Notes: a model not told the origin generated them from the letters alone. DNA of 22,467 nt from a virus (IMGVR_UViG_2636415673_000005); one strand, 5' to 3'; positions 310-14,100 are shown, counted from the stretch's first letter. Made by a program: numbers and translations.

Positions 310-545
310 CCGCCTAGACTAGCAATCATTCAATAGTAGCACTATCGAGCGCTCGCCAGTCGAGCGCAATCATGCTCCTTGCATACGGCGTGCAGCATAT
401 CACAAAACGATTACGCCATGACGGACTGCAGGCTACTCAATATCTGGCTCGATTAGCGTATTGGCATGATTTAACAGACCCCGGCGCTTATTCCCAGCAA
501 CCTGAAGCGGCACCTCTTCCTGTGTTGCGTTTACAACTCCCTTTT

Positions 546-845
546 TCACCCACGATTAACCAACAGCCAGACCAGCAGACAAGCCACCACCGGCACAGAA
601 AAATCCATCAGGCTTGCCACATCCCACACGCGCGGATCAAAACCACCCCACCACGGCATATGCATACGCTTGCCATGCCCGAACATTTCAATCCAGCGAT
701 ATTCTGCCTGGGTATGTTCACGAGCAATGAAGAACGTACAACCGGCTATCGCCCCGTAAGCCCAGTTTCCGGTAAAAAGACCAACCAGTACCTGCGCAGC
801 CACAGCACAAAGTGCATGAAGGAAAGGTGTTATATCCATTTTCAT
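546..845 (-). CDS. Small hydrophobic (predicted inner-membrane) protein of unknown function, about 99 aa
   Basis: ORF track 546..854 starts at a TTG; I prefer the ATG at 845 (MKMDITPF...) or 839, which has AGGA just upstream. Two clear hydrophobic stretches (LCAVAAQVLVGLFTGNWAYGAIAGCTFFIA and FSVPVVACLLVWLLV). Minus-strand codons look E. coli-like (CTG, GTG, CGT, CCG), whereas the overlapping plus-strand ORF uses rare codons. No family recognised. Confidence 0.45.
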   Translation of the reverse strand: MKMDITPFLHALCAVAAQVLVGLFTGNWAYGAIAGCTFFIAREHTQAEYRWIEMFGHGKRMHMPWWGGFDPRVWDVASLMDFSVPVVACLLVWLLVNRG

Positions 846-851
846 CCTACC

Positions 852-876
852 CAATAAAACGGGGCGCTCGGCCCCT
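852..876 (-). terminator. Intrinsic terminator after the distal fibre gene (GGGGC-gctcg-GCCCC hairpin plus U-rich tail); possibly bidirectional
   Basis: Seen in sequence: 5-bp GC stem at 861-865/871-875 with a 5-nt loop. On the minus-strand RNA it is followed by GUUUUAUU; on the plus strand by UUAAUAUUAUUU. It sits directly after the stop of the 882-1922 gene. Confidence 0.5.
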
Positions 877-881
877 TAATA

Positions 882-1922
882 TTATTTAGACGCAAGCGTC
901 GCCTCAATTGCAGATAATCTTTGTTTTAATTCTGCATTTTCTTCTTCCAGTGCTGTTATTCTGTCGTCTGACTCTCTGGCTACCTGAACAAGCAAGCCAG
1001 TAACACCAGAATAATCTACTGTGTAATAACGTTCACCTTCTTCACCTTCCGATCCGCTTGCACCGTCCTGATATTTCATTGCGGAACCTACAGCTTCTGG
1101 GATTGCTTCCAGAGCTTCCTGTGCAATGACACCAGCATAGGGCATACCGTTTTCTTTAAGCGTGTATGTATAGCCGTTCATTTTACGGATGCGGTCGGTT
1201 GCATTATCGATCACCTGAATGTTGTCTTTCAGATCCCGGTCGGAATGCTGGTTAAATGCGGTGGCATGACATGCACCATTAACGCTTAACATATAGGTGT
1301 TATCGGTATTTTTCTGCGCATAGAACATATAAGCGCCACCATCAACACCGACTTCATAAACAACAGGACGGCTGGAGTTGCCCCACAATTGAGCAGTAAC
1401 ACCAGCATAAGCGGTTCCCTGTGTGTTTAATGTCATGGTTGACCCATGATTGGCATATTTGATCTGTAATGTGTCGGTGTAATTAAATTTAATAAGCGCG
1501 TTACTTCCACGCTTGCTGTATGACATAAGGCAGTTACCCATTTTGAGGTATCCGCTGTCACCGGGAAAAATCATCGTACCGCCATAAAGGTTGGTAAAGT
1601 CCCAGCAAATGTTTGTCCCGTTATCGTTCAGGTTAAGGCGCGCCATTGCGTTACCTGGACTGTCTATCCATTTTTTGAGGTATAGTTCGCAATACGCATC
1701 CTCAACACCTGCCGTCCTGTGAGTTGAGCGGAGTTTTCTCCCAAATATAGCTCCGCTAGTTGGCAATACCTGCTGATACCATGAAGCAGACCAGTCACCA
1801 ACGATTTCATCTTTGCTGTCTACATATAATTTTGTTGCGTAGCTTCCTTGATCGTTTTTTAATTTGCTAACGTCGGATTTTAGCGTTTTGATGTCATCAG
1901 GAATTACTGTCGATGTAGCCAT
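882..1922 (-). CDS. Distal tail fibre / receptor-binding protein with a C-terminal intramolecular chaperone (peptidase S74-like) auto-processing domain
   Basis: 346-aa ORF. The C-terminal ~120 aa (…NQHSDRDLKDNIQVIDNATDRIRKMNGYTYTLKENG…AQEALEAIPEAV… then a coiled-coil tail EEENAELKQRLSAIEATL) matches the pattern of the chaperone domain found at the C-termini of endosialidases and phage tail fibres. GAGGAAG lies upstream of the ATG. The N-terminal ~225 aa is unrecognised. Confidence 0.6.
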   Translation of the reverse strand: MATSTVIPDDIKTLKSDVSKLKNDQGSYATKLYVDSKDEIVGDWSASWYQQVLPTSGAIFGRKLRSTHRTAGVEDAYCELYLKKWIDSPGNAMARLNLNDNGTNICWDFTNLYGGTMIFPGDSGYLKMGNCLMSYSKRGSNALIKFNYTDTLQIKYANHGSTMTLNTQGTAYAGVTAQLWGNSSRPVVYEVGVDGGAYMFYAQKNTDNTYMLSVNGACHATAFNQHSDRDLKDNIQVIDNATDRIRKMNGYTYTLKENGMPYAGVIAQEALEAIPEAVGSAMKYQDGASGSEGEEGERYYTVDYSGVTGLLVQVARESDDRITALEEENAELKQRLSAIEATLASK

Positions 1923-1931
1923 TTTTCTTCC

Positions 1932-2213
1932 TCACATCCAGCCACGAAGTTGATGCTCAACAGCAACCACGTATTCATCGAATAATGATGATATTTGCGA
2001 ATCATTAATGATGCGCACGTTTACAAAATATCCGTCTTCCTTAACACATACCGGTTCGCCATCTTCAGTCAGTTCTCCGGTTTCTTTGTACACGTTACCT
2101 ATCACGTCAATAAGAATATCATCCTGCATCGACTCGTCATCATAATAGCCAATACTCTCCATAAAGGCCGAAAAGTCGGCCCTGTCGGCAAATTTGAGTG
2201 TTAAATCTTTCAT
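1932..2213 (-). CDS. Small, strongly acidic protein (93 aa) translationally coupled to stf; possible fibre assembly factor
   Basis: Its ATG overlaps the stf stop (TAATG at 2211-2215). Composition is 21 Asp+Glu against 7 Lys+Arg. No similarity to lambda Tfa that I can recall. Function is inference from position only. Confidence 0.45.
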   Translation of the reverse strand: MKDLTLKFADRADFSAFMESIGYYDDESMQDDILIDVIGNVYKETGELTEDGEPVCVKEDGYFVNVRIINDSQISSLFDEYVVAVEHQLRGWM

Positions 2214-4588
2214 TAGATTGACTCCCCCACCTGAGCATCAGTCAATGCCTTGTGCCATATTCTGAAATTCCTGACATGACCAAATAAATGACGTAACCCG
2301 GCTGTAGTCTGGCCTCCAATACGGATAATTGCGGTGTTCTGAATACAGGACCATGTGGTTTTTGTTTCGCTGGATATATGCCCGTTACTTACTGAGCACG
2401 TAGACTGCTCTGACTTTACACGCATCCCCATAACCATTTTTTCAAGCGATGCGTTTTCGTTTACCCGTCTGTTAGCTCCTCCAATATCGCAATAAGGAAA
2501 TCCGTCGTAATCTGTTGAACGACCGAAGCCAAGAATAATAGCCGCTCCGGTTTGATGACCGCCGGTATCAAAAACACGTGGCGCTGCATTTGGCGTTTTA
2601 TACCAGTTCTTATGTACCTCACAAAGAACCGTAAAAGGAAGATTATAAAGATTATTCTTAATTGGAACTGTAACTATATCGCTTGCGCGGGTCGCCGCCG
2701 TCGCTCCTGATATAATAAAAGATGATACACAAGGCCCATCTTCTACTTGTGGGGTGGCCAGATAAATATAGTCACCAGATACGGTTGCCCCGCTCTGCTT
2801 AGGAGAATACTGTATCTGAGAGCCTATTTTTAACTCCCCATCAATTGCCTGAATTGTTGCCTCTGCAAAAATCCATCCGGTAGCTTCGTCCTTTCTGACT
2901 CTCGCTGTAATCCTTGAGGCAGCACCGCCTGTCATATTAATTTCAAGCGTTTGTGTATCAATATACGCATCACCAAGAAAAGTTGTTGCGCTACCGTCAT
3001 ATTTATCAAACCGGATACGCAACCTTACCTGCAGTTCTGTTTTAAAACGACATGAGGTTGTCACGTGTTTATTATCGCCTGAGACATCAACTGACTTTGT
3101 TGCAGCAATTGATGCCATATTAATGGCTGAGGTTTGCCCAATCAGAGAATCGTTGCAGACAAACTTTCCATAGGTAAAACCAAAATTATCCGTCCCTGTT
3201 TCGGGCACATCCATATTTGACGATCGCCCCCAACTGGCAGGGCTTTCCGAATTGAGCATGTAGTTTGTTCTTTGCCCCTCAATAAGCAGGCCATCACGTT
3301 CAAATCGTGGCTCGTCAATGGCAGCCTCTGTCAGCACACCAGATTTGTTAATATAGGTTGCTTTCGATGCACGTTTAAACTTAACAATCTTGTCGCCAGG
3401 CATCGTTATTTCATCGTCACCAATAACAATTTTTTTATATGACGGCGAAAAGCCCGTAATCATATCCAGCGAATCGTTAAATGGTATCCACACATCAGGC
3501 AGCGGCTGTAAGACATATTTATACGGCTCCGCAGCCTGGCTTGCGTACTCTCTGGCTGCATCTTCGCTTGCTTTAGCTGCCGTCTGGCTTGCTGCCGATG
3601 CTTTCGCTGAGTTCGCAGCCGCTGTTTCGCTCACCTTTGCGTTGGTTTCACTGGTTTTTGCTGCTTTTTGACTGTTAGCTGATGCAGTGGCAGAAGCAGC
3701 CGCCGCGCTTGCAGAACTGGCTGCGGCACTCTCGCTTTGGGCCGCTGCATCCTGACTGCTTTTCGCCGCAGTTTCACTGGCTTTGGCATTCGTTTCGCTG
3801 GTCTTCGCTGCCGTCTGGCTGGACTTTGCGTTAGTTTCACTCGTCTTCGCAGCTTTCTGGCTGTTAGCCGCAGCAGTTGCTGATCCAGCTGCTGAAGTCG
3901 CAGAACCGGCTGCCGCGCTCTCGCTTTCAGCTGCTGCAGCCTGGCTGTTTTTTGCCGCAGTTTCACTGGCTTTAGCATTCGTTTCGCTGGTTTTCGCTGC
4001 CGTCTGGCTGGACTTTGCGTTGGTTTCGCTCGTCTTTGCGGCTGTCTCACTGTTTTTCGCGTTGGTTTCTGATTTTTTGGCTGCTGTCGCGGAGTTTGCC
4101 GATGCAGTCTTTGAGGTCGCTGCCGCCTGTGCACTATTAGCTGCATTCGTTTCTGAGGTTTTCGCCGCGTTCTTCGATGATGCCGCTGCAGTTTCGGATT
4201 TCTTTGCCGCCGCTGCGCTCTGAGAGGCGGCTTCGGCGTTGCGTGCCACTTCTTCCACCATTGCCTCAAAACGACGCAATGCCTCCGGCATGACATCATC
4301 TTCCGTCATGGCACCGAGAAAATCATTCAGCGTACCTGGTCTGGAGCCTTCATAGACGGTAATGGTCCCGGCATGTGAAGGCGGAAAACCTTCAACCAGC
4401 AGGATGACGCTGTACTGGCCATGCTCAACATCCATGCTGTAACGCCCGGCTTCATCCGGATTTTCAGAGGCCACCGTGTTCACCAGTACCGTGGTGCTGT
4501 TACGCTTTGCCTTCAGTTGAATAGTGCAGTTCTGTATTGGTTTTCCCGCACAATCTTTCAGCACACCTGAGATTTTTACTGCTGCCAT
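2213..4588 (-). CDS. stf: Side tail fibre protein (lambda Stf-like N-terminus, Ala/Ser/Thr-rich repeat shaft, divergent C-terminal domain)
   Basis: N-terminus MAAVKISGVLKD…TIQLKAKRNSTTV…GRYSMDVEHGQYSVILLVEGFPPSHAGTITVYE matches my recollection of the lambda Stf N-terminal domain. Likely start is the ATG at 4588, with GGAG 9 nt upstream; the ORF track begins at a GTG at 4594. The central region is a low-complexity repeat (AAKTSETNAKxS…) and the C-terminal ~400 aa is unlike lambda Stf. Confidence 0.8.
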   Translation of the reverse strand: MAAVKISGVLKDCAGKPIQNCTIQLKAKRNSTTVLVNTVASENPDEAGRYSMDVEHGQYSVILLVEGFPPSHAGTITVYEGSRPGTLNDFLGAMTEDDVMPEALRRFEAMVEEVARNAEAASQSAAAAKKSETAAASSKNAAKTSETNAANSAQAAATSKTASANSATAAKKSETNAKNSETAAKTSETNAKSSQTAAKTSETNAKASETAAKNSQAAAAESESAAAGSATSAAGSATAAANSQKAAKTSETNAKSSQTAAKTSETNAKASETAAKSSQDAAAQSESAAASSASAAAASATASANSQKAAKTSETNAKVSETAAANSAKASAASQTAAKASEDAAREYASQAAEPYKYVLQPLPDVWIPFNDSLDMITGFSPSYKKIVIGDDEITMPGDKIVKFKRASKATYINKSGVLTEAAIDEPRFERDGLLIEGQRTNYMLNSESPASWGRSSNMDVPETGTDNFGFTYGKFVCNDSLIGQTSAINMASIAATKSVDVSGDNKHVTTSCRFKTELQVRLRIRFDKYDGSATTFLGDAYIDTQTLEINMTGGAASRITARVRKDEATGWIFAEATIQAIDGELKIGSQIQYSPKQSGATVSGDYIYLATPQVEDGPCVSSFIISGATAATRASDIVTVPIKNNLYNLPFTVLCEVHKNWYKTPNAAPRVFDTGGHQTGAAIILGFGRSTDYDGFPYCDIGGANRRVNENASLEKMVMGMRVKSEQSTCSVSNGHISSETKTTWSCIQNTAIIRIGGQTTAGLRHLFGHVRNFRIWHKALTDAQVGESI
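3560..4210 (-). repeat. In-frame tandem repeats inside stf (about three copies of a ~189-bp / 63-aa unit, with 21-bp sub-repeats)
   Basis: Seen in sequence: the string gccgcagtttcactggcttt…gctgccgtctggctggactttgcgtt recurs at 3765 and 3954 (period 189 bp), with a more degenerate copy upstream. The spurious ORFs on both strands here (3390-3671+, 3783-4223+, 3631-4299-) are low-complexity artefacts. Confidence 0.7.
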
Positions 4589-4598
4589 ATCCACTCCA

Positions 4599-4626
4599 CA
4601 AAAAAGCCCGCCTGAACCGGCGGGCT
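4599..4626 (-). terminator. Intrinsic terminator between lom and stf
   Basis: Seen in sequence: 8-bp stem AGCCCGCC / GGCGGGCT (4605-4612 / 4619-4626) with a 6-nt loop, followed on the minus-strand RNA by UUUUUUG. Confidence 0.55.
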
Positions 4627-4652
4627 GTCATAACACTGTGTTACCTGGCTAA

Positions 4653-5252
4653 TCAGAATTTATAACCGACACCCACGATGAAACCGTCAGTGCGCCAGTC
4701 ACCACTGCCGGAGCCTTCATAAGCAATATCAATGGCCACGGATTCGGTCGGGTTAAACTGCACGCCAGCCCCCCACGCCAGAGACGTGTTGCTGTGGCGA
4801 CCGTCATCACTTCCAGTCAGCACATCGTGCGTTTTCCCCTTGCTGTCAGTTACGCGGAGATAATCCCCGGAAAAAGTTGAAACACGGCTGTAAGCCACAC
4901 CTGCCATCGCATAAGCACTGAACCATTCATTCACGCGTACAGACGGCCCCGCCATCATGCTGAACCAGCGGTTACGCACTGAATCTTCATGCCAGCGGGT
5001 ATCGCTGTAATGCGTTTTTTGCTCATCTTTGGCATTGGCATAACTGAATGACGTCACCAGCCCCAGCGTGTCCGTAAATTCATAACGGTATTTCACGTTA
5101 ATGCCCTTCAGGTCATCGTTGCCGGGCATATCAGTATGGGTCTGAAGATACCCGGCGCTTAGTGTGGACTGATGCTCTGCTGCGCTCGCTGGCGTACCAG
5201 CGGCGACCAGCCAGACTACTGTGGACAGAATAACAGCACATAATTTACGCAT
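4653..5252 (-). CDS. lom: Lom-like outer-membrane protein (Ail/Lom/PagC family beta-barrel)
   Basis: 199 aa with an N-terminal signal peptide (MRKLCAVILSTVVWLVAAGTPASA), alternating beta-strand pattern and a C-terminal aromatic residue (…GVGYKF). It sits between J and stf exactly as lom does in lambda. GAGAGG lies upstream of the ATG. Confidence 0.8.
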   Translation of the reverse strand: MRKLCAVILSTVVWLVAAGTPASAAEHQSTLSAGYLQTHTDMPGNDDLKGINVKYRYEFTDTLGLVTSFSYANAKDEQKTHYSDTRWHEDSVRNRWFSMMAGPSVRVNEWFSAYAMAGVAYSRVSTFSGDYLRVTDSKGKTHDVLTGSDDGRHSNTSLAWGAGVQFNPTESVAIDIAYEGSGSGDWRTDGFIVGVGYKF

Positions 5253-5319: not shown

Positions 5320-8300
5320 TCAGCTAATCGTGATGCCTGCAGTGGCTTTCTTCATCACAACAACCAGCAAATCGCTGATACTTGCTGTGGGATACCAGCC
5401 ATTTACCCACCATGCTGATACAGAAAACTCCAGTGTCATTACGCCACTGCCTGCAGGCATATCAATAACACCCGTGTAAATCAGAGTATTATCCAGAGCC
5501 GTTCGGTTATAAATTTCAGCCCCGTTTTTCTTCACTATCAGGCGGCATGACGAATAAGTATCGCTATTCTCCCGTTCATGTCTGGCACCGCTGAAAGCCA
5601 CCGCTGGAATAACAATTTGCCGGTCAAACGGCTGATCGTCATAAACCCTGACGGTAATGGTCCCTGATGGCCACCGCTCCGGTGCACGGGAGTCCCGGGG
5701 GAAAGCTTTGCCCACTGTTTTAACGAGATCGCCTTCAATCTGGTTCGCGGACAGTTTTCCCAGAACCCGACAGTTCTCGTTAATCGTGACGTTGTTGAGC
5801 GTCCCGGAGTTCGCATTCACGCTACCGCTGATATCGGCATTTTTCGCCGTCAGTCGCCCGTCCGGTGTCAGGGAAAATGCCGGAGGATTACCGCCGCTGG
5901 TAATGGTGGGAGCCGTCAGATATTTCAGGAACACTTCATTCATGAATATCTGATCGCCCTGACCAACAAACATCGGCTTTGTGTTGCCATTCGCAGGATT
6001 AATCATCGCAATCCTGTCTGCCGCCAGCAGCACCTGACTCTGCATGCCGTCGGGGGTGTTCTCAATACCGGCACCGATACCCGCAATATAAAGGCGTCCG
6101 TCCTGCATCTGCTGCAGCTTCACTGCCCACATGCTGTTCAGGTTATTATTTGTATCAACCTGAACCTTCTGTATCTGCTGGATCGCTGCACTCTGGTCTT
6201 CCAGTTTCTTATTGACGGTCTGCGTGATTTCATTGCTGACATCCGTAATGGACGTCCTGATTTCAGCCAGGTCAGGCGCAAGCTGACCGTTATCAATCTG
6301 CGTCCACAGCTCCTGAGCCAGATGGGTTTTCCCTATCTCGCCTTTGAAAAAATCCAGATAGCCGGATGCATCATCACTCGGCTGACCAACAGCCTCCACG
6401 AATGCCGATTTGCCAACGGTGTTCACACTGCGAACGTAAAAATAATAATCATGGCCCGGTTTGATATTGATACTGGCGGCTATCCAGTACAGCCCCGTGC
6501 CAAGGTAGCGCGCTGTGGTTTCAACCTGCCTGATATCGGTAATCCGCTTTTCCGAGAACCAGAACTCAAACTGTACCGTCGGGTCATAAACGGCAAGATG
6601 CGGCGTGGCGGTTATCTGAAAATACCCCGGCGTCAGCTCAATCCGCGACGGTGCTACCGGTGCGGCAATCCGGAACGATACCGACGCCGGATCGCCCTGC
6701 TGTCCCCACGCATTTACCGCCCGGACTGTCAGCGTGTACCGCCCCAGCGCCAGTTGCGTGAAGCGGTATGTGGTTTCCGTCGTCCGGGCCGTGCTGACCA
6801 GCCGCTCACTGCCGTCATCCGCTGCCACGGTCAGGCGAAGCAGGAAGCTCACGCCCTTCACCACCTTCGGCGTGTCCCAGCGCGCCAGCACCTGATATTC
6901 CCCGCTGTCTGCGGTGACTTCGGCGGTCAGGTGCTGCACCGCTGGCGGCGTGACACCATTCACCGTGCCGCTCTGGTCGCCGTCAAAGTGCGCCCCGTTA
7001 TCCACGATGGCTTCTTTTTCCGGTACATGCTGCACGGCAGTGATGGCATACGTGCCGTCATCGTTCTCACGGATACTCACACAGCGGAACAGGCGCTGGC
7101 GCAGCGTCGGCAGCTTCAGCCCCCACATACTGTATTCTGCAACGCCGTCAGGAACCCGGTTCACTTTCACCTTAAGTCCGTCGGTGACGGACTGAACCTC
7201 CACGCTGACCGGATTACCACTTCCGTCAACCAGGCTTATCAGCGTGGTACCGGAGGATGGCAGCGTGATTTCACGGTCGAGCGTCAGCGTCCGGGTCTGG
7301 CTGTTCACCGCCAGCACGCGACCACCGGTGCTGATACCGGCATAGTCATCATCGCAGATTTCAATGACATCGCCCGGTACATGGCGAAGCCCTTCAGCAC
7401 CCACGCTGAAATCCACGGTCTGCGTCTCCAGCAGTTCCGTTTTAATCAGCCACAGCCCGGCGCGGTGTGCCTGCCCCCGGCTGGTACAGCCAAAGGCATC
7501 CATCTTCGTGACATTACGACCGTAACGGGCAATGGCCTGCGTATCTTCAACAAGCTCTGTCGCCGTCTCCCAGCCGTTGTCCGGGTCAATCCAGTTCACC
7601 TCAACGGCATTATGGCGGTCCTTCAGGGCGCTGAAGCTGTAGCGGAACGGCGCGCCATCATCCGGCATCACCACATTACTGCGGTTATAGGTCCACACCT
7701 TATCCGACGGTCGGTCCTGCACGAACGTCAGCGTCTGCCCGTTCCATACCGGCATACAGCGCATCGCCGAGCAGAAATCACTGAGCACATCCCACGCCTT
7801 GCGCTGTGTGGTCAGGTACGCATTACAGGTGATGCGCGGCTCCGTGCCGCCAAAGCCGTCCGGCACTGACTGGTCGCAGTACTGGCCGATGACATACAGC
7901 GCCCATTTGTCCACATCCGCCGCACCAAGACGTTTCCCCATGCCGTAGCGTGGATGGGTCAGCATATCCCACAGACACCAGGCCATGTTATTGCTGTATG
8001 CTGGCTTAAACGTTCCGTCCCAGATACCGCTGTATTGCCGAGTCTGCGGGTTATAGTTCGACGGCACCTGCAGAATACGCCCGCGCAGATGATAATTACG
8101 GCTCACCTGCTGGCTGCCGAACTGCTCCGAATCCACCTGTACGCCGACCAGTGCCGTGTTCGGGTAGCACTGTTTCACATCGATGATTTCGGTGTATGAC
8201 GACCAGAGCGTTTTGTTCTGCAGCTGGTCTGTGGTGCTGTCCGGCGTCATCCTGCGCATCCGGATATTGAACGGGCGCGGCGGCAGGTCACCCACCACCA

Positions 8301-8799
8301 CCGATGCTAGATACTGTGAGGTGGTTTTGCCTTTAATGGTGATGTCTTTTTCCGTCACCCAGCCACCATTACGCTGTATCTGAACCAGCAGGCGGACTTC
8401 CGACGGATTCCGGTCCCCCTTTGAGGTGGTTTCCACCAGTGCCTGCACACCGAAGGTAAAGCGCAGACGGTCGATGTTTGCCGACGTGATGGTCCGGGTA
8501 ATCGGCGTGTCGTACTTCACTTCCGTACCCAGCACCGTCTCGGAGCCGGAGGATTCAAATCCCTCCGGCGGTGTCTGCTCCTGCTCACCGGCCCGGAACA
8601 CCACCGTGACGCCGGATATATTGGTATTCCCCTCACTGTCCAGCACCGGCGTACTGTTCAGCAGCACGCTTTTTAATCCATCCACCGGACCTTCAACCGG
8701 CCCTTCGCTGATGGCATCGATCACACTCAGCAGCTGCGTGGACTTCAGGTTGTCCTTCGCTTCGCGCGGGGTATGCCCCTTACTGCTGCCTTTACCCAT
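5320..8799 (-). CDS. J: Tail tip / host specificity protein J (central tail fibre)
   Basis: 1159 aa. The N-terminus [34 protein letters not shown]… and most of the length match lambda J as I remember it; the last ~150-300 aa diverge. GGAG lies 11 nt upstream of the ATG. Confidence 0.9.
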
Positions 8800-8820
8800 T
8801 CGTCATGCTCCATAAACGAT

Positions 8821-8841
8821 AAAACCGCCCGGAGGCGGTTT
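8821..8841 (-). terminator. Hairpin with U-rich tail in the I-J intergenic gap (attenuator/terminator-like)
   Basis: Seen in sequence: AAACCGCC-cgga-GGCGGTTT, followed on the minus-strand RNA by UUUUAUCGUUUAU, then the J ribosome-binding site. Confidence 0.4.
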
Positions 8842-8859
8842 CACATAAAACATTTTGCA

Positions 8860-9501
8860 TCAGCGACCAATCACCACAACCTGACCACCATCCCCTTCGT
8901 CTGCCGTGCTGATCTCCTGAGAAACCACGCGTGACCCCACGCGCATTTCACCGTACAGAACCGGCAGAACATTGCCCTGGGCAACCATGTTATCCAGTGA
9001 AGAAAAATAGGTGTTCTGTTTGCCGTTATCCGTTGTCTGTGTGCGGGGGGTTTTGGGTTTAGGGGCCAGCATCTGTGCAACACCGCCAAGCGTCATACTG
9101 GCACCGAGAGAAAACAGCAGATTACTCGCCATAATTCCTACCCCCGGCATCCATATAGCAACCGCCATAACAGCCGCCCCCAGCACAGCCTGAAACACAC
9201 CGCCACTTTTGGCTCCTGCCAGACGCGGCACGATATGGATCACGGCACCATTTTCCAGCGGCTCATTAAGACGGGCAGACAATTCGGTTTCACCTGCATC
9301 ACGCCCGGCAATGCGTACCTGGTACCAGCCGTCGCTCAGTTTCTGACGAAATGCCGGGATCTGCATGGCCAGCGCCCGGATGGCTTCGGACCCCGTTTTC
9401 ACTCGAAGGTCGATGCGGCGGCCAAATCGTTGTAAATCCCCGTAAAGGCAGATGCGTGCCATGCCCGGTGACGCCAGAGGGAGTGTGTGCGTCGCTGCCA
9501 T
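8860..9501 (-). CDS. I: Tail assembly protein I
   Basis: 213 aa: MAATHTLPLASPGMARICLYGDLQRFGRRIDLRVKTG… …NGKQNTYFSSLDNMVAQGNVLPVLYGEMRVGSRVVSQEISTADEGDGGQVVVIGR. Matches lambda gpI by recollection. Its 5' end overlaps the 3' end of K by 103 nt in another frame, as in lambda. Confidence 0.85.
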   Translation of the reverse strand: MAATHTLPLASPGMARICLYGDLQRFGRRIDLRVKTGSEAIRALAMQIPAFRQKLSDGWYQVRIAGRDAGETELSARLNEPLENGAVIHIVPRLAGAKSGGVFQAVLGAAVMAVAIWMPGVGIMASNLLFSLGASMTLGGVAQMLAPKPKTPRTQTTDNGKQNTYFSSLDNMVAQGNVLPVLYGEMRVGSRVVSQEISTADEGDGGQVVVIGR

Positions 9502-10142
9502 TTGTCGGTGTACCTCTCTCGTTTGCTCAGTTGTTCAGGAATATGGTGCAGCAGCTCGCTGTCACCACAGTAAATGGCGGCATGATTCGGCACCGATGAA
9601 CCAAAACAGCACAGCAGCACATCGCCCGGCTGCGCCGCTGACAACGGCACCTGATACAGCCCTGTGGCCTCCAGATTATCCAGATAGAGATTCTGACCGT
9701 TACGCCACCAGTCATCCCCGCGATGAAAATCCGGCATCTCAATTCCCGCCAGATGGTAAGCGTCCCGGAACAGCGTGTAACAGTCCGTTACCCCGTGCTC
9801 AAAGCGCCGCCCGGTGAGATGCGGCACACAGCGGAATTTATGAATCGCCCCCCGGCAGACCAGCCACCACGGCAAATCACTCTGTACCTGCAGCCGCCGG
9901 TCGGCCTCACTCAGCCAGGGCAGACCACCGGGGTGGCTGTGGACCAGCGCCACAATCTCTCCCTGCATTTCTGCACTCAGCCAGTCCTCCGGCGACATCC
10001 GGAAATACTCCTCCGGCTCACCGGAGATATTCACGCAGGGAAAATATCTTTCCTCCTCCGGCGTTCTCACCACGAAGCCGCACGACTCCGCTGGCGCACA
10101 TCGCCGGGCGTGCGCCAGAATCGCTGATTCTGTCTCTGTCAT
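9399..10142 (-). CDS. K: Tail tip assembly protein K (MPN/JAB-like plus NlpC/P60-like domains)
   Basis: 247-aa ORF MTETESAILAHARRCAPAESCGFVV… with the HSHP metal-binding motif (…VALVHSHPGG…) and a Cys/His region downstream. The internal Met at residue 49 corresponds to a shorter ~199-aa form. Confidence 0.85.
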   Translation of the reverse strand: MTETESAILAHARRCAPAESCGFVVRTPEEERYFPCVNISGEPEEYFRMSPEDWLSAEMQGEIVALVHSHPGGLPWLSEADRRLQVQSDLPWWLVCRGAIHKFRCVPHLTGRRFEHGVTDCYTLFRDAYHLAGIEMPDFHRGDDWWRNGQNLYLDNLEATGLYQVPLSAAQPGDVLLCCFGSSVPNHAAIYCGDSELLHHIPEQLSKRERYTDKWQRRTHSLWRHRAWHASAFTGIYNDLAAASTFE

Positions 10143-10147
10143 GGGAT

Positions 10148-10846
10148 TTACTGCGAAAGTTTGTTAATGGAAAGGAAGCTGCCAAAGTTGCCGACATTAT
10201 TGCGAAACTTACAGCCACTCAGGCATTTGCTGCATTTATCCTTCGTGATATCGGACGTCGGCTGGTCATATTCATCCGCGACCGCCGGACCGCTATAACC
10301 GCACTCATCGCCGCGATAGGTCCAGGTGCAGGTGTTGGCCAGCATGATACGTCCCGGAAAAACAGCGCCATCCGTTTCAGTCGGCGTGGACAGTACAAAA
10401 GAGGCACTGACCGCGCTCAGTTCGCTGCACTGCTCGATGCGCCAGCGGCTGATCACCTCCTGCTCCGGATCGGCTTCGCTGTTTCCGTTGACGAAGTTCA
10501 CCGCATCCAGAAAGCGGGCGTAAACCTTACGCCGGACCACCGTTCCGCCGACCAGACTCTGCAGATCTTCCGCCATCCCGGTGATCATGCCGTGCAGGTT
10601 AGAGACCGCCAGTGTCGGACGGGCAGCACTGCCCTTGCCGTTCATCTCAAATCCACTCCCCTGAATGGGATAGGCCTGATACTGCCGACTCTGCCAGGTG
10701 ACAGACTCACCTTTTTCGTTCTGCTCATTACAGAAAAAGTAGCGATCCCCGCCTACCTCGGTCAGGTCGATTTCCCAGAGCACCACGCTGGCCGACTGCT
10801 CCGCACGAATGCATTCATTCAGCGTTTCCTGTTGTATGTCCTGCAT
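10148..10846 (-). CDS. L: Minor tail protein L
   Basis: 232 aa: [47 protein letters not shown]… with a C-terminal Cys cluster (CSKCLSGCKF). Near-identical to lambda gpL as I recall it. Overlaps M at ATGA. Confidence 0.9.
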   Translation of the reverse strand: MQDIQQETLNECIRAEQSASVVLWEIDLTEVGGDRYFFCNEQNEKGESVTWQSRQYQAYPIQGSGFEMNGKGSAARPTLAVSNLHGMITGMAEDLQSLVGGTVVRRKVYARFLDAVNFVNGNSEADPEQEVISRWRIEQCSELSAVSASFVLSTPTETDGAVFPGRIMLANTCTWTYRGDECGYSGPAVADEYDQPTSDITKDKCSKCLSGCKFRNNVGNFGSFLSINKLSQ

Positions 10847-11184
10847 CAGATCACCACTTCGTCAAACTGACACGAAAAATCGGTATAGGTGATATGTTCT
10901 GTTGCTGACCACGTTCGACACACCACTCTGATTTTTCTGTTAATACCCGGCGGGCGCCAAAAAAAAGATTTATAGCCTTCATGCCGGGCTAAAAATTTTT
11001 CAAATGAATCACGTTCATTCGCCTCAACTTTGAAATCACAGGTGAAAACGCGCAGAGAATGATTAAGTCCATTTGGACTTCGTTGCTCATAACCATCGCC
11101 AAATCTTACAGTTTTTATCGATGGTTTATTTTCTGTTTTCATTCCATCCTCTGGTAACCAGTGAAATTCTTCCGTATTAGCCAC
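10846..11184 (-). CDS. M: Minor tail protein M
   Basis: 112 aa containing …[16 protein letters not shown]…[16 protein letters not shown]…, lambda gpM-like; in the conserved position between the tape measure and L. Confidence 0.85.
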
Positions 11185-14100
11185 TTAACATTCCCCCATC
11201 ACGTCGCATATTTAACAGATTGCCCTGCACCCGCTGATCAACCATCCCCATAAGTGCTTTTATTGCCTGAGGGCCAATCTCTCCATTCTGGCCGTCATTT
11301 TGAACAGTGATTTGGTATACAGGGGCATAGGTAATATCTCCGCCTCCATTACCACTTTTACTATTAACAGCTCTGACACCAAGAGAACCATCGGAAGTTC
11401 GTGTTAATGGCATAATGGCTTCCGGACCAGCCTCACCAAAAACACCAGCCCCTCTTGCAAAAGCAAAAAATTGCGGGGAATCATAAATACCGTTCGAATA
11501 CGTGTTCAATGACGGAGACTCATAAACACCGCCCTTTGCATTCGGAATAAATTTACTAATAGCACTCCCGATAGTTCCTAAAATCCCCCCAGAAGAACTG
11601 TTACTAATGCTGTAGAAAATCCCAGTAATTGAAGCCTTTAATGCTATTCGACTAAGATCCGAAATCACGGAAGTAGCGAAAGAACGAAAATTTGCTTTGC
11701 CTGTCGTGACAAAATCACCCAGCGCATCGGTCATTCCATCAAACATCTGAGTCGTGGTTGATTTTATCTGCTCACTGATATCCTTAGTGTCATCCAGCCA
11801 GTTATTGAATCCCTGGGAGGCACCACTAACCCAGTCTCCTGCCTGAATATCGAGCTGCTCGTTTTTCTGTCTGACAATTTCTTTTTCTCGTTCCAGAGCA
11901 TCATTCAGAGCCTGCATTTTCTCCTGAAAAACATGATTTGACATCCCACGGGATTTATCTGCATAGTCACGTTCAAGTTGCAGACGCTGATTGTTATATT
12001 CACGTTCAATCCGCAGTAATTCCTGCTGGCGTTGCTGATTTTTATCGCCAACCCCATAACCAGCAATCTGAATATCATACCCCTGTTGACGATTATCAAT
12101 CGAAGCCTGCAATGAATCACGCCATGCAGCTATTTCGGCGGATTCCTTGATTAGCCTGTTATTTTTTTCAATCGCAACATTTTTCTCCATCAACGCGGTT
12201 ATTTCTTCCCGGTGTAAGAGAAGCGATTTCTGATCCTTGGTTAATTTCGATGACGGTCGTGACTCCAGGTCGGCAATCTGCTGACGCCACTTAACCAGTT
12301 CCTGTTCAGAGGAACTTAATTTAACGGTTAATTCAGTTTGTGAACTTAGTAACGCATTCTGTTGATTCAGATGATCAATCATTCGTTGGGCAGCATCATC
12401 CGAATAACCTTTCGCCTTTGGTTGCTTTGGATCTTTATAACGCTCATTTATTTGAGCGATAAGATTATTATATTCTTCCTTTGAATACTGACTCTTTAGT
12501 TTTTCCAGTTTTGCAAGTTCACTAGCTCTCTGCTGCTCCCGGGTCTGATATTGTTTTGAAAAGGCATCTGCTCTCTGTCTGAGTTCAATTCCTTCCTGTT
12601 GTCGCTTGTTGTAATCGTTTATTGATGAATTTAGTACGTCCTGAGCAATTTTTTCTGCTTGAAGTACGCCCAATTGCTGCTTTAATCGTGCCAGCCTTTT
12701 ATTTTGAGCTCCGCCATCTCCAATGCCACCTAACCCGAAAACTCCGGGTCGGGTATTTTTTTCTATTTCATCAATTTGACGGAGAACATCTGAGATTTTT
12801 TGATCAAGGGAGGCCTCACGGCCAATATCCAGCATGGAATCCCATGCCCATTTTGCGGAGTCTGCGACAGCTTTCCATGCAGTCTCAAGATAACCAAGAT
12901 TTTCTTTAATCTGGTTGGTGCGCTGGATCATTGAGGATGAGTATGCTTCTGTCGCAATGCGGGCGGCCTCCTGCTGGTTCCCTTCATCCTGTAGCGCCTT
13001 AATCTGGTTATAAGTCGCAATTGTCAGAAAATGGTACTGATCATTAAGTTTTGATATGGCACTGACAGGATCCTTTGCAATTTCATTGAAGTCATTAACC
13101 AGTTGTTCGGTTGATATTCCTGTTACTTCGCTCGTTTTTACTATCGCTGTCGTCACTTGCTCCAGCGAACTGCTCGCTACCTTTCCCGAACGCACAAGCT
13201 GGTTTAATACTGCCGCCGCAGCGCCAGTTGTCGAATCAGCCGCATTCCCGGCACGTTGAACTATATCGGCCAATTGCCCGCTGGTTGTCCCCAACTGATT
13301 TCCGGTAAGAATAAGAGACTTATTAAATTCGTCCTGCTCCTGAGAGCCTTTATAGTAAGCCAGCCCTAAGACGCCAACGGCTGCTGCGGCCAGGGTAAAA
13401 GGATTAATTAATCCCAGCACATAAGAACCAACACCTTTGATCGCCGGGCCAATCCCACCGAACATATCTTTTAGCTGGCCGCCCTGCTGCATTAACACCA
13501 TAAAAGGCGACTGACCAGTGGACAACCCAACAACAATATCCGTCATTTGTGCAGGCAACATGCGCATAGCAAAAGCCGTTTGTTTTGCCGACATTCCGGT
13601 TTTGCTTAATTGAGATTGAGTAACCTCAAGCTCACTCCGCATAGCACGAAGTTTTCCAGAAAGTTCCTCATACATTTCAGGAGAGAGCATCCCCTTAGCT
13701 TTTGCTTCATTGAGCTGTTTCTGTTGTTCTACCAGACGATTAAAAGCAGTTCCGACAGGGTCAAGTTGAGCAATCAGACGTTGCAAAGCAGCAACCTGTT
13801 CATCATGCGCTTTTGCTGCTTCTCGCTCTGCCTGAGCCTCTCCGGTAAGCTCTCGCCGTGTTTCCTGTATTTTTCGGCTATAATTCTCAAACTGAGAACC
13901 ATTTATTTTCCCGGATGCAAACGCAGCATTAAGTTCATCCTGCTGTTGTTCAAGATTTCTTAGCGCCGCAGCCAGAGGGTCGATCTTGTCCAGCATTCTT
14001 TGAAAGGCCTGAGTCTGCGCTTCCTGCTGGGCGGCAGCAAGTTTTCCGGCCTTCTCGGCTTCTCTCTGCGCTTGCGCAACCCCGCTCAATTCCTCTGTGG

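Follow-up and report, generated by a model that had tools for sequence, protein, structure and literature searches.

A three-gene tail fiber cassette in a lambdoid tail operon

We analyzed a 22,467-nucleotide (nt) stretch of viral DNA (IMGVR_UViG_2636415673_000005; hereafter the window), in which positions 882-4588 carry a three-gene tail fiber cassette. The distal end of a lambdoid tail operon, encoded on the minus strand, fills the left 9 kb of the window and comprises J (5320-8799, taken from a listing of open reading frames, ORFs, and just upstream of lom and stf), lom (4653-5252; Pfam Ail_Lom, E = 3.5e-126), and then the fiber genes. As proposed in a preliminary description made from the DNA alone, the three cassette ORFs are intact, lie on the minus strand, and occupy the position of the lambda stf-tfa pair; stf directly follows J and lom, as in the lambda layout.

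The first gene, stf (2213-4588, with ATG at 4588 and stop codon at 2213-2215), encodes a side tail fiber protein that matches phrog_1419 ("tail protein") over its full length. It has 791 amino acids (aa) counted from the ATG; the ORF listing extends two codons further, to a GTG at 4594, which gives 793 aa. The second gene (1932-2213) encodes an acidic 93-aa protein of phrog_1361, and the third (882-1922, stop codon at 882-884) a 346-aa protein of phrog_4563, composed of a putative docking motif, a tip, and an S74 chaperone domain. At the junction of stf and the small gene (...caatcTAATGaaa), the TAA stop and the ATG share one base (TAATG); the 346-aa gene starts 9 nt past the TGA of the small ORF and is preceded by GGAAG. 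A programmed frameshift fusing Stf to the small ORF was considered and rejected: the overlap is of the ordinary TAATG/ATGA termination-reinitiation type, the relation of the two frames is constant across all families, and there is no sign of a slippery site. A terminator-like GC hairpin with a T-tract directly follows the 346-aa gene (861-875, minus strand) and likely marks the 3′ end of the fiber operon. A second terminator-like hairpin lies between lom and stf (4605-4626, minus strand), and the equivalent site in phage 21 is annotated as a terminator.

Stf begins with a lambda-type tail-attachment domain (residues 5-134; 4187-4576; Pfam PF08400 phage_tail_N, E = 1e-65, 220 bits), followed by an Ala/Ser/Thr-rich shaft (residues ~135-359; 3512-4186) that varies in length among relatives and, at 3635-4069, holds tandem repeats of 189-, 42-, and 21-nt period. 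By BLASTP, Stf is 58% identical to lambda orf-401 over 341 residues (Stf 3-329), where the similarity ends. The preliminary description had thus correctly recognized the lambda-like N terminus, the repeat shaft, and a C-terminal part unlike that of lambda. Pfam, PHROG, and NCBIfam scans found no lambda-tip family in the Stf tip, to which lambda orf-314 was not directly compared. Overall, the cassette resembles the stf-tfa region of lambda (Ur-lambda) in its position after J and lom, its homologous N-terminal domain, and a shaft of similar composition, but differs in lacking the lambda tip and Tfa, in place of which it has a lectin module like that of a gene transfer agent (GTA) head fiber and two unrelated genes.

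The segment encoding the shaft stands out in base composition. Across 3500-4500 the AT skew is extreme (-0.3 to -0.5). Other frames, and the plus strand too, show long spurious ORFs, with lengths of 222 aa (3631-4299) and 146 aa (3783-4223). The skew and the spurious ORFs probably derive from the Ala/Ser/Thr-rich stf repeats. Separately, the RefSeq annotation of E. coli GN06156 (NZ_CP095529; Prokaryotic Genome Annotation Pipeline) splits its copy of stf (7332-9707 of the extracted locus, L004) into an N-terminal "pseudogene" and a 678-aa "phage head spike fiber domain-containing protein." This DNA is 100% identical to window positions 2213-4588, where the frame is open throughout. The split looks like an annotation artifact, of a kind that could hide intact side fibers in genome surveys.

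The Stf tip resembles a polysaccharide-binding module

Beyond the shaft, Stf residues 360-791 (2216-3511) are predicted from domain homology to form a glycan-binding module. The NCBIfam model NF048003 (GTA_spike_fiber) matches residues 437-637 with 50.5 bits against a curated cut-off of 36, and a phmmer search of PDB sequences aligns Stf 403-650 with residues 45-286 of Rcc01080 (GhsB) from RcGTA (E = 1e-7). Rcc01080 is a single subunit that binds Rhodobacter capsular polysaccharide (PMC7296036; PMC10218006). The polysaccharide-binding regions of the two proteins are homologous; their settings differ, as Rcc01080 attaches singly to capsid pentons through an N-terminal Leu-Gly repeat rather than forming the end of a trimeric tail fiber. 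Further information comes from Bas32 (IrisVonRoten), a T5-like BASEL phage with a related fiber, for which Humolli et al. (2025, PLoS Biol) depict Gp22 as a proximal fiber with a protruding "galectin-like" domain and Gp24 as a distal fiber (PMC11990801). Residues 339-796 of the Bas32 proximal fiber yielded a very confident homotrimer model (pLDDT, predicted local distance difference test, 95.4; summed interface and overall predicted template modeling scores, ipTM+pTM, 0.94; PMC11990801). Our own AlphaFold2 (AF2) model of Stf 362-791, built from an alignment whose homologs were all at least 76% identical, reached a mean pLDDT of 52.6 and was confident for residues 446-618 only; this core matched carbohydrate-binding modules (CBMs) and one phage baseplate protein. 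Taken together, the GTA_spike_fiber match, the Rcc01080 homology, and the Bas32 homotrimer model suggest that the Stf tip is a lectin/CBM-type polysaccharide-binding module and not a lambda tip dependent on Tfa.

Comparison of 23 diverse cassettes divides the tip into a constant framework (residues 360-449, 615-674, and 765-791) and two variable stretches (450-614 and 675-764). The framework, LPDVWIPFNDSL...EPRFE..GLLIEGQRTN...RHLFGH.RN.RIWHK, is recognizable in an alignment of 15 tip types that include those of Bas32, Bas06, and Bas48. The variable stretches most likely bind O-antigen or capsule.

The preliminary description had also raised the prospect of a new adhesin or depolymerase fold. 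This was not borne out, as the Stf tip appears to be of the lectin/CBM type and the tip of the 346-aa protein resembles other coliphage fiber tips with S74 domains. Pfam, NCBIfam, and PHROG searches of Stf and the 346-aa protein detected nothing enzymatic, whether a pectate-lyase-like beta-helix, a sialidase, an esterase, or a similar domain, and we rejected a depolymerase tailspike on this basis.

One Stf tip type is cut short in the IMG/VR locus L013 (742 aa, ending ...VRKFIGEY), whereas related loci such as L066 continue (...VRKFIGGFNIY...). The L013 type may represent a frameshifted copy present in some prophages.

A self-chaperoned fiber protein with a shared N-terminal peptide

The product of the third gene can be divided into three parts. 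Residues 1-20 (1863-1922), MATSTVIPDDIKTLKSDVSK, form a motif common to otherwise unrelated third-gene products, and we propose that it is a docking peptide. Residues 21-226 (1245-1862) would constitute the variable stalk and receptor-binding tip of the predicted mature fiber. The remainder (residues 227-346; 885-1244) is a Peptidase_S74 intramolecular chaperone with a C-terminal coiled coil. Such a chaperone domain had been suspected earlier, and profile searching identifies it clearly (PF13884 at residues 227-278, E = 2.6e-14, 53.7 bits versus a cut-off of 22). The S74 region additionally aligns with the intramolecular chaperone region of S16 gp37 (PDB 6F45). Residues 92-226 share homology with the tips at the C termini of much longer coliphage fibers (phrog_5668, phrog_6578; tblastn), and homologs of the protein are named "tail fiber domain-containing protein" or "pyocin knob domain-containing S74 family peptidase." Sequence homology therefore supports assignment of the 346-aa protein as an S74 self-chaperoned fiber.

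S74 domains act in cis on their own polypeptide and are then cleaved off, as in the K1F endosialidase and T5 pb1. At the start of the S74 domain, the 346-aa protein carries an S-x4-K pair (S227-D-R-D-L-K232), which, after these two proteins, we take to be the catalytic Ser-Lys cleavage dyad. Because this motif sits at the start of the domain, the mature distal product is predicted to contain 226 aa, in agreement with the ~225 aa estimated previously.

Several homologs are instead labeled "endosialidase chaperone" or "putative lateral tail fiber chaperone" (in ESCO3, Bas06/PeterMerian, JK16, and SECphi27), which would imply that the third protein is a trans-acting chaperone for Stf rather than a fiber. 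A 234-aa variant of the protein, of which only ~115 residues would remain after maturation, would fit such a role. We nonetheless find it very improbable, given that the S74 domains described above serve the polypeptide that carries them before being removed, that residues 92-226 are homologous to the receptor-binding tips of long coliphage fibers, and that Stf proteins of the phage-21 type, which have the same framework, do without a gene of this kind.

A shared N terminus connects the 346-aa fiber protein to a diverse set of other third-gene products. Among 168 loci extracted, nearly all of these products start with M-(A/V)-T-x-T-(V/I/N)-I-P-x-D-I-x-x-L-K, whatever comes after, and the motif in the 346-aa protein (MATSTVIPDDIKTLK) matches the T-x-x-I-P-x-D-I-x-x-L-K versions of Bas32, Bas06, Nonagvirus, and Dhillonvirus. 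The motif is thereby common to otherwise unrelated third proteins from lambdoids, Nonagvirus, Drexlerviridae, Dhillonvirus, and T5-like phages. It begins the 346-aa type, the 234-aa type with its own S74 domain (E = 4.6e-6), the T-shaped 574-583-aa proteins of the Bas32 type, the 225-aa protein of Bas06, and the split form found in Dhillonvirus. In the 23 diverse cassettes, residues 1-20 of the third protein are constant and everything after residue 20 is variable. In a tblastn search with the first 35 residues, 61 phage records contained the motif; in those checked, it directly follows the small gene on its 3′ side. This distribution of sequence conservation suggests that the N-terminal motif probably docks the distal proteins.

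In the Dhillonvirus KarlBarth (locus L169, 3270-4149), annotation divides the third gene with the motif into a pair of overlapping ORFs (98 and 196 aa), whose translations show no S74-type motif. This gene could encode a two-piece distal fiber or contain a frameshift.

The cassette is widespread and mosaic

Positions 500-4700 of the window recur at 97.9-98.5% nucleotide identity over 97-100% of their length in the phages 2G7b (Nesevirus), Tritos, HannyBb, and PhiR63_1. These phages carry the same element, with the ORFs annotated as tail protein, hypothetical protein, and tail fiber protein, and Stf is 98-100% identical in 2G7b, HannyBb, and Tritos. We found no functional study of the cassette in any of the four phages in the literature, and papers on Eligo lambda-STF engineering, BF23, and Hf4s contain nothing concerning it. 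At a threshold of at least 80% query coverage, 373 of 5,426 complete E. coli genomes (~7%) carry the cassette, and identical copies occur in clinical isolates.

The gene order of a fiber gene, a ~92-aa ORF overlapping its stop codon, and a third gene ~9-12 nt later is likewise found in Bas32, Bas06, KarlBarth, EC104, and JenP1. Records of the small protein span lambdoids, Drexlerviridae (Bas06), Dhillonvirus (KarlBarth), Nonagvirus (JenP1/2), T5-like phages (Bas32, EC104), and rV5-like myoviruses (Bas48). The novelty implied by the preliminary description hence does not hold: in addition to near-identical cassettes in sequenced phages and E. coli genomes, all three proteins fall into existing PHROG families, and the same order occurs in at least five coliphage groups. 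What is new is modest, namely the shared docking peptide, the mosaic of constant joint and variable tips, and a small protein without an assigned function.

The most detailed comparison is with Bas32. Its genes gp22, gp23 (92 aa), and gp24 have the same order and spacing, with the small ORF over the stop codon of the fiber gene and the third gene ~10 nt later. The Stf module is 59% identical between the two phages over residues 362-654 and 72% over 655-791, and the small protein 39%. The Bas32 third protein starts with the same motif (MVTKTVIPTDITKLK) and ends with an S74 chaperone domain. Differences lie at the two extremities. The proximal fiber of Bas32 joins a T5-type tail via a separate assembly protein, whereas the fiber described here has a lambda Stf-type N terminus; and the Bas32 distal fiber is a T-shaped protein of 574 aa with a dual receptor-binding domain (Gp12-like and T5-like), compared with 346 aa and a single tip here. 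Searching with the N- and C-terminal halves of the 346-aa protein (tblastn) gave no match in the Bas32 locus, such that only the N-terminal motif and the type of S74 domain are common to the two distal proteins.

The virulent Nonagvirus vB_EcoS_ESCO3 gives evidence that part of the cassette has been transferred. Its block that begins at Stf residue 362 and runs through the 346-aa gene is ~95% identical to the one here (92-96% at the amino-acid level), whereas the Stf N termini share only 33% identity. By sequence comparison, a temperate and a virulent phage have exchanged this block as a clean module. Because Stf 362-791, the small protein, and the 346-aa protein move together while the N terminus of ESCO3 Stf differs, the docking partner of the distal protein would be expected to be encoded inside the cassette.

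Loci whose small proteins are at least 92% identical to the one here differ widely in the Stf tip, with identities of 44-100% over residues 362-654 and 36-100% over 655-791. Either distal type (346 or 234 aa) occurs with most types of Stf tip. To judge from these sequences, the small protein stays almost invariant while the distal fibers and the variable portions of the Stf tip reassort freely around it. A contrasting arrangement is found in phage 21. Its Stf resembles ours up to residue ~655 (86% identity over 362-654), its homologous 92-aa gp23 (54% identical) overlaps the stf stop codon, and the same 97-aa membrane-protein gene lies downstream, but there is no distal fiber gene, and the last 135 residues of Stf are only 40% identical. 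At the 49 loci with a small protein of this type, no motif-bearing gene comes after the small gene. The ORF for the 97-aa membrane protein, which here is found 3′ of the 346-aa gene, comes next instead.

The three genes likely encode one composite side tail fiber

We consider it likely that the three genes encode a single composite side tail fiber, in which Stf, with its lectin tip, is the proximal part, and a second tip belongs to the S74 protein, a distal part that plugs in. The lambda-type N terminus of Stf would fix the fiber to the tail and be followed by the repeat shaft, and the last ~430 residues would form the lectin-like polysaccharide-binding module, with its two variable stretches borne on a constant framework. 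The 346-aa protein would form a separate, short distal fiber, a trimer folded via its own C-terminal S74 domain. Self-cleavage at S227 would leave a mature protein of 226 aa with its own receptor-binding tip, and the N-terminal peptide, T-x-x-I-P-x-D-I-x-x-L-K, would plug onto a constant element encoded within the cassette. The 93-aa protein, which would be translationally coupled to Stf, would act on the constant parts of the joint. A particle built in this way would present two different glycan-binding sites per fiber. The two-part receptor-binding apparatus put forward in the preliminary description is accordingly the option that comparative data favor.

That option had been listed alongside two alternative tips, and phages with two independent receptor-binding proteins are common. 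The 346-aa protein might then be unattached to Stf, either as an independent second fiber elsewhere on the tail tip or as a competing tip such that particles carry one or the other. What makes an unattached protein improbable is the company that its gene keeps. It moves with the Stf C-terminal module and the small protein across unrelated tail tips (lambdoid, Nonagvirus, Drexlerviridae, Dhillonvirus, and T5-like), and in the loci examined it never occurs without an Stf-type tip and the small gene immediately upstream. Moreover, the sole conserved part of the distal protein is a 15-20-residue N-terminal peptide, far too small for a baseplate-anchor domain. Since the distal protein is portable among unrelated tail tips, always accompanies the Stf tip and small gene, and is constant only in those 15-20 residues, we infer that it docks inside the cassette, as a composite fiber would entail.

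Multi-protein lateral fibers have been described for T5-like phages and small siphoviruses (PMC8594841, PMC4728585, PMC10713586, PMC11990801). From the literature alone, the composite fiber can be likened to the branched fibers of the T5-like phages DT57C and DT571/2 (Golomidova et al., 2016; Ayala et al., 2023; PMC4728585, PMC10713586), in which a second fiber (LtfB) is carried by the first (LtfA) and each recognizes its own O-antigen. The proteins and layout are different in that system: LtfA has a T5 pb1-type N terminus, and no small intervening protein has been described.

Several points weigh against a composite fiber of this design. The putative linkage of the three proteins is drawn from gene comparison, and the patterns of co-inheritance could be explained by gene adjacency alone. 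The published Bas32 work modeled the proximal fiber and the distal fiber each by itself, leaving out the small protein (S7 Table), so attachment is assumed there too (PMC11990801). Regarding the tip, the AF2 model has pLDDT values below 50 for Stf 619-791 and 362-445, the LamG-like nature of the last domain is based on a sub-threshold Pfam match and the published Bas32 model, and cryo-electron microscopy of Rcc01080 resolved only the first ten residues (2-10) and none of the homologous part (PMC7296036). The fold predicted for the small protein offers no functional clue.

Side tail fibers get lambdoid phages past the O-antigen or capsule layer and so set host range. A cassette that combines two glycan-binding sites with free reassortment would help explain how temperate E. 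coli phages track surface-glycan diversity, and virulent siphoviruses carry the same cassette. The constant elements of the putative joint (Stf 360-449, Stf 765-791, the small protein, and the docking peptide) would also mark natural places at which to splice when delivery particles based on lambda, or therapeutic phages, are to be retargeted.

A small acidic protein encoded between the fiber genes

The 93-aa protein is, as had been noted, highly acidic (21 D/E versus 7 K/R; isoelectric point 4.05). It belongs to phrog_1361 (E = 2.4e-46), a family of unknown function, has no Pfam or NCBIfam family, and matches no known unrelated family. The family is narrow: an exhaustive search of 1.84 billion representatives recovered only 52 clusters, all of them small proteins of the same family or fragments, and no annotated relative. 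By tblastn, the small protein occurs in 186 phage records, compared with 219 for the Stf tip module, and among 60 small-protein records listed, every annotated match adjoins or sits beside a tail fiber gene. An AF2 model of the protein reached a pLDDT of 86.8, with a conserved C-terminal R-x-W tail in a lower-confidence, unstructured part, but had no informative structural neighbor. Similarity to Tfa/Caudo_TAP or T4 gp38/gp57A-type proteins was not found in either sequence or fold, and Pfam, PHROG, and NCBIfam likewise gave no Tfa-family match for the 93-aa or the 346-aa protein.

The preliminary description envisaged a fiber assembled without a Tfa-type chaperone. The part of this claim concerning Tfa itself stands, since the locus has no gene of that family and the Stf tip is not a characterized Tfa-dependent domain; the claim overlooked, however, the 93-aa protein, itself the leading candidate for such a factor in assembly. 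We tentatively regard it, with slightly less than even confidence, as an assembly or capping factor dedicated to Stf that acts on the constant framework, and thus as a functional rather than evolutionary stand-in for Tfa. A tip-specific chaperone of the Tfa kind is disfavored because the small protein does not co-vary with the variable tip: versions that are at least 92% identical accompany Stf tips with 36-100% identity. A pure adaptor is disfavored because the small protein is retained where the distal fiber is absent, namely at the 49 phage-21-type loci and in rV5-like phages (Bas48) lacking a motif-bearing third gene.

An adaptor role nevertheless deserves consideration. The 93-aa protein might remain in the virion at the end of Stf as a socket for the distal N-terminal peptide, serving as a joint across several coliphage families. 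Its gene lies between the two fiber genes in every family examined, and within the lambdoid population the protein is, like the docking motif, nearly invariant while both of its neighbors vary. The absence of co-variation with the Stf tip is as expected of a joint and unlike a tip-specific chaperone, and the conserved R-x-W tail resembles a short binding peptide. Against such a role, the protein persists intact in the phage-21-type and rV5-like genomes just mentioned. Across families it also diverges faster, to 39% identity with Bas32, than the Stf framework and docking motif that it would contact. We consequently view a structural adaptor as possible but unlikely, and favor an assembly or capping factor over a structural socket.

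It is similarly doubtful, although worth stating, that the 93-aa protein and the 15-residue distal peptide make up an undescribed universal plug-and-socket joint and with it a new family of structural fiber-joint adaptors. If true, distal fibers and lectin tips could be swapped independently of each other in at least five coliphage families (lambdoids, Drexlerviridae, Dhillonvirus, Nonagvirus, and T5-like phages). Hundreds of phage genomes, and ~7% of the complete E. coli genomes, carry the small protein, which is omitted from the sole published structural model.

Sequences surrounding the cassette

Directly after the terminator-like hairpin that follows the cassette lies an ORF of 102 aa (546-854, minus strand; phrog_1443). 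Its counterpart in phage 21 is annotated as a putative membrane protein with a signal sequence and two transmembrane domains, and ORFs of this type adjoin the cassette in both 346-aa-type and phage-21-type loci. It may be a lysogenic-conversion or exclusion gene. In GN06156, the sitABCD iron/manganese transporter operon is located just past the fiber end of the prophage, as it is in phage 21, and outside the window, beyond its position 1 (403-3852 of locus L004 and 1-2442 of locus L003); a frameshifted DinI-like gene corresponds to window positions ~90-276. Elsewhere in the window, G+C content falls at ~10,500-11,200 from ~57-63% (J, I, K, and L) to ~43-47% (tape measure and upstream genes), which suggests that a lambda-like tail tip meets a tail/head module of another kind at a mosaic junction.

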